64,000 nucleotides of DNA, taken from Novosphingobium sp. Its GTDB lineage: Bacteria > Pseudomonadota > Alphaproteobacteria > Sphingomonadales > Sphingomonadaceae. The stretch is taken from the NCBI RefSeq assembly GCF_030699305.1, contig NZ_JAUYNB010000031.1, forward strand, positions 6,492-70,491, written 5' to 3'. Under the pieces are notes generated by a model. It was given only the letters and a program-made list of their open reading frames with translations, was not told the origin of the DNA and ran no database searches. Shown here piece by piece: positions 56,756 through 57,351 of the stretch. The position numbers and the translations under genes are program-made. Every line of letters starts with the position of its first letter. Position 1 is the first letter of the stretch.

Positions 56756-57351
56756 TGGGGCTCCACCACCCCCCGGCCCCCTCCTCTAAAGAGGAGGGGG
56801 GGCAGGTCGCTAAAGCCCCCTCCTCTTCGAAGCAGCGGGGGCAGGCCGCTAAAGCCCCCTCCTCTTCAGAGGAGGGGGTTGGGGGTGGTGGCGTAACACG
56901 CCAAACCTTGCTGCAACGCGCCGCCGCGATGCGCCGCAACCCGACCGAGCCCGAACGCAAGCTCTGGATGGAGCTGCGCGACCGCCGTTTCGCCGGATAC
57001 AAGTTCCGCAGGCAAGCCGTGATCGGCAACCGGATTGTCGATTTCTTCTGTCCTGCCAAGGGCTTGGCGATCGAACTTGATGGCGATACGCACGATGCGG
57101 ACACAGACCGCCTGCGCGATGCGCGGATGCTGCGCGCAAGCGGATACCGGACCGTGCGGTTCACGAACGAGGATGTGATGCGCAATTGCGACGGGGTGCT
57201 GACGATGCTGGCGGATGTTCTGGCAGAACGGGGCAATCGCTGGGCTGGGGCGCTGCACCACCCCCCAGCCCCCTCCTCTGAAGAGGAGGGGGAGGAGTCT
57301 TGCTTGATGAACGCCCCCTCCTCTGAAGAGGAGGGGGAGCAGGCGGCATGA
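56755..57351 (+). CDS. DUF559 (Vsr-like) endonuclease with repeat-encoded N- and C-terminal tails
   Basis: [40 protein letters not shown]; coupled to recN (TGATG) and ligA (ATGA). Confidence 0.88.
56763..56891. repeat. Palindromic repeat cluster upstream of the DUF559 core (R1 56777-56800, degenerate R2 56816-56841, inverted R3 56855-56878)
   Basis: Core CCCCCTCCTCT-NN-AGAGGAGGGGG with leader CACCACCCCC. Confidence 0.92.
57256..57337. repeat. Palindromic repeats downstream of the DUF559 core (R4 57269-57292, R5 57314-57337)
   Basis: CCCCCTCCTCTGAAGAGGAGGGGG x2; R4 plus leader is the inverse of R3 plus leader. Confidence 0.92.

Follow-up and report, generated by a model that had tools for sequence, protein, structure and literature searches.

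RESULTS

A DUF559 gene bounded by palindromic repeats lies between recN and ligA

The window analyzed here, a 64,000-nucleotide stretch of a Novosphingobium sp. contig, carries a DUF559 nuclease open reading frame (ORF) between recN and ligA (Table 1). The ORF overlaps both neighbors, the recN stop and its own ATG being joined as TGATG and its stop and the ligA ATG as ATGA; one gene call in the protein collection begins at a TTG near 56908. A 24-nt palindrome, CCCCCTCCTCT-NN-AGAGGAGGGGG, has five exact matches in the window, at 56777, 56855, 57269, 57314, and 63780, and a sixth copy with one mismatch at 63826. These six matches compare with none in 100 dinucleotide-preserving shuffles of the window. 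Five copies, one of them degenerate (R2), surround the ORF.

Two kinds of unit can be distinguished: U+, a C-tract leader (CACCACCCCCCNG) followed by the hairpin, and its reverse complement U-, the hairpin followed by a G-tract tail (TTGGGGGTGGTG). From left to right, the locus consists of U+ (R1), R2, U- (R3), the core, U+ (R4), and a bare hairpin (R5). R3, directly before the core, and R4, directly behind it, are the left and right terminal inverted repeats. Together with tail and leader they pair as an inverted repeat of 31 nt with 97% complementarity (56855-56885 and 57262-57292), lengthened to ~37 nt by a further 17-nt arm (88%). The tail of R3 mirrors its purine arm, and the purine arm of R5 (GGAGG) lies ~10 nt upstream of the ligA ATG.

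The initial annotation had described a 24-bp palindrome repeated around the DUF559 gene, a ~37-bp terminal inverted repeat (R3/R4) around the core, a palindrome open in five of six frames, and a nuclease-less copy of the repeat 6.4 kb away. All four descriptions hold: of the six frames of the 24-mer, read directly, a single one contains a stop (TGA), and the distant copy is the doublet at 63767-63862. The layout itself is better described otherwise, since R1 to R3 jointly make up a complete leader-to-tail doublet of the same kind as that distant one. The same annotation had also proposed that the repeats are translated in frame, so that the coupling of recN, DUF559, and ligA is kept. The TGATG and ATGA overlaps are indeed present, but in-frame translation of the palindrome is not kept across clades; we dropped it as a constraint because some hairpin-to-core distances are not divisible by three, and in Sphingobium the DUF559 start codon is located 3' of the hairpin. 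Separately, a 41-nt segment inside ligA (57939-57979), which encodes a conserved 12-residue motif, shows ~7-fold excess depth in the source metagenome, probably contributed by ligA genes of other organisms.

Table 1. Coordinates of the features discussed, in window positions
Feature	Position	Strand	Remarks
recN	55052..56755	+	upstream host gene
Segment missing from empty recN-ligA allele	56747..57348	+	related metagenome contigs
DUF559 nuclease ORF	56752..57351	+	open from recN stop to ligA start
R1	56764..56800	+	'+' orientation unit: C-tract leader CACCACCCCCCGG + palindrome
R2	56816..56839	+	degenerate palindrome copy
R3	56855..56891	+	'-' orientation unit: palindrome + G-tract tail TTGGGGGTGGTGG
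DUF559 core domain	56887..57255	+	PD-(D/E)xK, Vsr/EDxHD-like fold
R4	57256..57292	+	'+' orientation unit: leader CACCACCCCCCAG + palindrome
R5	57314..57337	+	bare palindrome without leader or tail
ligA	57348..59504	+	downstream host gene
Family-B inside-out doublet	61812..61897	+	hairpin + TGGGATGGGGG, 21-nt spacer, CCCCACCCCAA + hairpin
Nuclease-less doublet	63767..63862	+	leader + hairpin, 22-nt spacer, hairpin + tail; two minus-strand genes around it

The DUF559 protein is conserved and has a PD-(D/E)xK-type nuclease fold

Residues 53-156 of the ORF product match Pfam DUF559 (PF04480) with an E value of 3e-30 and 104.6 bits (gathering cutoff, 20.6). Pfam also gives a weak MTES_1575 match and no Y1_Tnp match, and an NCBIfam search returned the DUF559 model only. 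The AlphaFold model (pLDDT 89) finds as fold matches, in order, 3HRL, the homing endonuclease I-Bth0305I, and the nuclease domains of PvuRts1I and AbaSI. A PDB profile search (E up to 1) yielded the uncharacterized 3HRL as its single match; Vsr structures were absent from that search and from the best 50 Foldseek matches. DUF559 has been placed with Vsr in one superfamily grouping, group 58 (PMC3424549), and the relationship of the window nuclease to Vsr is at the superfamily level only. D52, E63, D65, and H69 are among the invariant columns of a 21-sequence alignment, and dN/dS values of 0.07 to 0.25 in close pairs indicate that the gene is under purifying selection.

The family is large, with 21,357 representatives at E<=0.001 (over 21,000 clusters at 50% identity), and we found no experimentally established DUF559 function in the literature. 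Caulobacter VsrA, a DUF559 protein, provokes an SOS response once its partner cytosine methyltransferase is deleted; it has been linked to cytosine methylation, with a proposed function in mismatch repair (PMC12907096). An independent survey found DUF559 enriched among genes overlapping inverted-repeat pairs (PMC9881135). A defense-system role is unlikely, the PADLOC matches being marginal (E ~1e-3).

Repeat units extend beyond the palindrome and fall into families

The useful unit, at ~37 nt, exceeds the palindrome: it comprises a hairpin with a C/T arm and a G/A arm, plus a G-tract that mirrors the purine arm. Units start with CACCACCCCCC or CCCCACCCCAA and lack a GTAG/CGTC tag. The minimal conserved layout is hairpin and tail, gene, leader and hairpin, and the terminal inverted repeats of the cassettes compared span 37 to 53 nt. 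Family A units are carried by Erythrobacter and Novosphingobium-type nucleases, a 10-bp-stem variant occurs in Sphingobium and Sphingorhabdus, and family B (CCCCTCCCCTTCAGGGGAGGGG with TTGGGGTGGGG) is found in Sphingomonas, Allosphingosinicella, Sphingopyxis, and Rhizorhabdus. The 37-nt units are 88 to 94% identical between loci at which third codon positions of the nuclease gene agree at only 45 to 47% and first and second positions at ~71%. With synonymous sites saturated, no part of the cassette is thus better conserved than its noncoding ends.

We compared tail and purine arm in 15 families picked by eye from five bacterial groups. In 9 of them, the two mirror each other perfectly (9/9, with A opposite A or T), a score that shuffled tails rarely equal in any of the 9. 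The mirror rule can be read at window positions 56868-56891 and in the units of loci L001-L092 and L213-L218. Family B units have four G-runs, and 62 of 130 fit the canonical G-quadruplex pattern. These features suggest that hairpin plus tail may adopt an intramolecular purine-motif triplex or quadruplex fold.

At three loci (L031, L049, and L065), another small palindromic element, with ends AGT(T/G)(T/G)CAG...CTG(A/C)(A/C)ACT, interrupts a DUF559-associated unit; the units of L001 (GTCCGGGGGAC at the center), L002, and L020 also hold insertions, which may be of other elements. Translated units routinely appear in gene calls as tails at the N or C terminus, for example HPNPSPEGEGL or PHPNPSPEGEGL (P0002-P0085 and many DUF559 entries); in many cases these tails are probably annotation artifacts.

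Repeat density and repeat family follow the nuclease across Sphingomonadales

A genome scan supplied 80 Sphingomonadales loci whose DUF559 cores are 51 to 71% identical to the window core. Counting perfect hairpins (stem of at least 9, loop of 2 to 6), we found 5.68 per kb within 150 nt of the 80 cores versus 0.137 per kb in 1.33 Mb of flanks, a 41-fold difference; DUF559 homologs are thus far more repeat-flanked than background. A stricter classifier recovered the order U-, core, U+ at 55 of 81 loci, and by eye most of the others look like degenerate or interrupted versions of it. The layout differs in Sphingorhabdus, which has a leader and hairpin at either side of the core, and in L010, where the order is reversed.

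The repeat family follows the nuclease clade. Family A or A' accompanies the recN-ligA and prfA-prmC clades, and family B accompanies the sufB-sufC, yebC-ruvC, and ABC clades. The two flanks of any one gene always bear the same family, and paralogs within one genome bear different ones. In L078, one DUF559 gene has family B and the second has family F, a 52-nt two-hairpin inverted repeat with compensatory changes between the two copies of its inner hairpin. Similarly, Sphingomonas parapaucimobilis YK209 has family B at sufB-sufC, D at yqeY-dnaG, and F at pntAA-pntAB. Specificity is not one-to-one, as three clades that differ by ~45 to 50% in protein have near-identical family-B units. An apparent polyphyly of the prfA-prmC group, in a neighbor-joining tree of a 120-residue protein, was weak, and we did not rely on it.

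Occupied and empty sites occur within operons

In assembled contigs of two related metagenomes (X3 and X4; flanks at least 88% alike), recN is joined at 56746 to ligA at 57349 or 57357. This empty allele, in which the recN TGA overlaps the ligA GTG, is without the entire ~600-bp cassette, all five repeats included. The nuclease ORF is present in some alleles of this one conserved site and absent from others. Our evidence for the empty allele consists of the junction contigs only, not of core depth: since the DUF559 gene diverges beyond the 88% threshold, the low core depth in X3 and X4 is no proof of absence. Of a possible target-site duplication at recN-ligA, we see only a shared TGA.

Cassettes occupy recN-ligA, prfA-prmC, yebC-ruvC, sufB-sufC, and an ABC ATPase-permease junction, and the flanking genes identified are all codirectional with the DUF559 gene. 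In 34 of 44 loci, the likely start of the next gene lies 1 to 12 nt past the last hairpin, whose purine arm contains GGAGG. The yebC-ruvC spacer of L144 measures 118 nt and may be an empty or a decayed site. In some genomes, a GNAT-family gene also lies between recN and ligA, with the cassette upstream or downstream of it (L003 and L007 versus L005, L008, L013, and L023).

At six sufB loci, the last ~16 sufB codons (VEAQKLLGISLEGSVG and stop) are repeated directly 3' of the cassette, and the DUF559 ORF ends inside the duplicated tail (L057, at 9849-9905 and 10376-10432; L058, L059, L067, L074, and L079). The duplication is compatible with integration by recombination over this segment or with a coconversion tract.

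Most copies of the repeat are free of the nuclease

Two further doublets lie in the window (Table 1). Within the one at 63767-63862, a metallo-beta-lactamase-fold gene has its likely GTG start in the reverse complement of the leader (GTGGTG), ~8 nt downstream of a hairpin-arm GGAGG. The inside-out doublet at 61812-61897, between the end of a plus-strand gene and prmA, belongs to family B, which flanks another DUF559 clade in Sphingomonas; its spacer resembles the first bases of family-B cassettes, and the 64-kb window contains no family-B DUF559 gene.

The repeat is by no means confined to these copies. In the source metagenome, the hairpin has a depth of ~2786 against ~72 for its flanks, or ~38 copy-equivalents at single-copy depth, a value that may mix organisms. 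Scanning metagenome contigs with a 23-nt arm and tail gave at least 128 exact matches in at least 120 loci. Among the matches listed, 12 are next to DUF559; doublets or miniature elements account for 37, singlets for 69, and full 48-nt palindromes for 3, the other 7 being situated at contig ends. The ratio of nuclease-less to DUF559-linked units among them is ~9:1. Many doublets in unrelated flanks have a composite structure of ~150 nt in common, with conserved blocks and variable hairpins. Within L093-L212 (e.g., L112, 8780-8960), these elements run in the order hairpin and tail, variable hairpin, CACCACCCC-GCTGCGACTAGG, variable hairpin, CAAGTCTCGCTG, hairpin.

In 200 kb of YK209 with one DUF559 gene, there are ~18 nuclease-less intergenic sites of families B, D, F, and E. 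One intergenic region of that genome (NZ_CP155749.1, 826008-826602; L221) holds four family-D doublets in tandem. DUF559 is the sole recurrent nonhousekeeping ORF beside the units, and no other recurrent transposase-like ORF was found near them. Contigs of the related metagenome X4 contain U- to U+ doublets whose 30- to 33-nt spacers retain GGATCGCTGG, the 3' end of the gene, and which look like internal-deletion derivatives.

Similar units flank DUF559 genes in other bacterial groups

Among 18 DUF559 loci from a plasmid collection (Deinococcus, Synechocystis, Pseudanabaena, Picosynechococcus, Sinorhizobium, Shinella, Azospirillum, Photobacterium, Methylobacterium, Neisseria, Escherichia coli, and Sphingomonas), units lie on both sides in 11 and on one side in 5, and 2 have degenerate traces only. 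In Deinococcus and Synechocystis, the units face the opposite way. A simple inversion between the flanking hairpins would leave this symmetric structure unchanged, and we rejected it as the source of the reversed layouts. Units from Sinorhizobium and Deinococcus may correspond to orphan repeats cataloged earlier (RIME-like repeats and Deinococcus small noncoding repeats).

DISCUSSION

The arrangement described here is reminiscent of REPtrons (REP/REPIN repeats with RAYT/TnpA-REP). In both, a single nuclease-type gene lies between inverted palindromic repeats, the repeats are also dispersed as intergenic singlets and inverted doublets, repeat families are specific to gene clades, and the gene is under purifying selection with its position largely kept. 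Unlike REPtrons, which employ an IS200/IS605-type HUH/Y1 tyrosine transposase, the cassette encodes a PD-(D/E)xK DUF559 fold and sits inside operons in sense orientation. REPs are defined by a conserved GTAG or CGTC head on an imperfect palindrome, and repeats that are CGTC-tagged or untagged lack a transposase (PMC3733652); the units studied here have no such head, and their hairpin arm is instead mirrored by a C- or G-tract. The initial annotation had proposed a REPtron-like autonomous/nonautonomous pair. None of the three outcomes that it named as refuting was found: the repeat is dispersed, DUF559 homologs are far more repeat-flanked than background, and repeat family follows nuclease clade. 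The proposal is supported in part; its remaining part, mobilization of the repeats by the nuclease, we infer.

We found no literature description of DUF559 tied to palindromic or dispersed repeats. Correia/NEMIS, RIME, the Deinococcus small noncoding repeats, and the Rickettsia palindromic elements resemble our units in being short and structured with terminal inverted repeats, in lying in intergenic DNA or being read through in frame, and, for some, in providing expression signals. To our knowledge, these miniature families either rely on transposases of the DDE or another type or lack an assigned enzyme, and we found none tied to DUF559 in the literature searched. The cassette has terminal inverted repeats, as do TIR transposons and MITEs; unlike TIR transposons, it has no DDE, serine, or tyrosine transposase, its one ORF being DUF559. 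Its nuclease falls into the same superfamily grouping as Vsr and VsrA (PMC3424549). VsrA can damage DNA in vivo, and the accessible part of its account mentions no repeats (PMC12907096). Unlike Vsr, the DUF559 gene adjoins no methyltransferase here, and its neighbors are recN and ligA.

The data establish an element made up of a nuclease and its cognate repeats, with numerous nuclease-less relatives. They show the architecture of the cassettes, their association with the repeats, the covariation of repeat family and nuclease clade, the dispersal of the units, the presence/absence polymorphism, and the purifying selection on the gene; from these, we infer that the nuclease acts on the unit, and likewise its catalysis, its movement, and the route by which copies spread. 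We consider it somewhat more likely than not that the locus is one of a widespread group of selfish nuclease cassettes residing in operons, whose nuclease targets the unit and whose unit-bounded DNA is spread through host repair. The nuclease would recognize its cognate unit, in duplex form or folded into a hairpin, triplex, or G-quadruplex, and nick or cut there. Host repair or recombination would then copy or move the DNA between units, i.e., the cassette as well as the commoner nuclease-less singlets, doublets, and miniature elements of ~100 to 190 nt. As the relatives of DUF559 are known only to hydrolyze DNA, spread would need host recombination. Placed in sense orientation between tightly coupled housekeeping genes, the cassette would keep the stop/start overlaps, and with the GGAGG of the last hairpin serving as the ribosome-binding site of the next gene, it would be tolerated. 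Several points speak against this model. Cassettes are mostly syntenic within clades, a pattern for which vertical inheritance alone would suffice. The near-identical family-B units of three nuclease clades, the exceptions to the layout (Sphingorhabdus, L010, Deinococcus, and Synechocystis), and a possible target-site duplication of no more than a shared TGA also count against it, as does the link of VsrA to cytosine methylation with a proposed role in mismatch repair (PMC12907096).

A serious rival is a free-standing homing endonuclease gene, each lineage of which cuts one specific empty operon junction, or the palindrome itself, and is copied in by double-strand-break repair. The units would then be homology arms as well as expression and insulation modules (ribosome-binding site and RNA hairpins), and the nuclease-less copies would be decayed or internally deleted remnants. 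Such a mechanism fits the data about as well as nuclease-mobilized repeats do. The cassette shares with free-standing homing endonuclease genes (EDxHD, I-Bth0305I, PDB ID 3R3P) a related catalytic fold, a small nuclease-only ORF between conserved genes, and both occupied and empty alleles. The fold match to I-Bth0305I, the empty recN-ligA allele, nuclease clades that follow the insertion context, the ~16 sufB codons duplicated behind the cassette at six loci, the purine arm 1 to 12 nt upstream of the next start codon at 34 of 44 loci, and the gene ends retained in some doublet spacers are all consistent with it. However, the units are more conserved than the protein, and nuclease-less copies are in ~9:1 excess among the matches listed, occupy many unrelated intergenic sites, and include a conserved composite miniature element. 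This dispersed pattern points to a spread of the repeats themselves, beyond decay in place. Furthermore, we know of no homing endonuclease genes with terminal inverted repeats or genome-wide nuclease-less repeat derivatives. On balance, we consider the homing reading rather unlikely.

We judge it less probable still that the protein is a host nuclease, domesticated for repair or for the processing of structures, which would nick mismatches or the hairpin, triplex, or G-quadruplex of repeats that spread by other means. The repeats would adjoin the gene because they accumulate in the same operon gaps or because they regulate it. Purifying selection, conserved gene positions, and the mirror-repeat and four-G-tract features of the units suit such a role, as does the ability of VsrA to drive the SOS response without its cytosine methyltransferase (PMC12907096). 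Yet the same family stands inverted on both flanks, paralogs within one genome bear different families, the empty allele lacks the whole cassette with its repeats, and no other transposase-like ORF recurs near the units. Finally, that ordinary REP-like repeats, being intergenic and multicopy, should have accumulated around a DUF559 gene by coincidence is scarcely credible given the 41-fold local enrichment over 80 loci, the fixed position and orientation, and the covariation of families with nuclease clades.

Extending the selfish-cassette model to the whole of DUF559 is possible but doubtful: REP-type repeats of bacteria might comprise a second major class, with the DUF559 family as its dedicated nuclease and each clade having its cognate hairpin and mirrored G-tract. 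The enzyme would then be structure-specific as well as sequence-specific.

DUF559 is one large bacterial nuclease family without an assigned role, and many palindromic repeat families are without a known enzyme; the clade-specific pairing of DUF559 with a hairpin and G-tract opens both problems to a concrete and cheap test. For annotation, the consequence is that translation of the units routinely adds spurious tails to protein N and C termini. Should the nuclease act on its unit, the cassettes would represent a REP/RAYT-like system that uses an unrelated enzyme, so that genome parasitism or domestication would have arisen convergently, and would offer natural nucleases with long, programmable-looking recognition units. 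If the family-wide reading is true, DUF559 would supply the enzyme for orphan repeats in several phyla, possibly including the rhizobial RIME-like and Deinococcus small repeats, and would constitute a mobile element that spreads by a hydrolytic nuclease and host repair alone.
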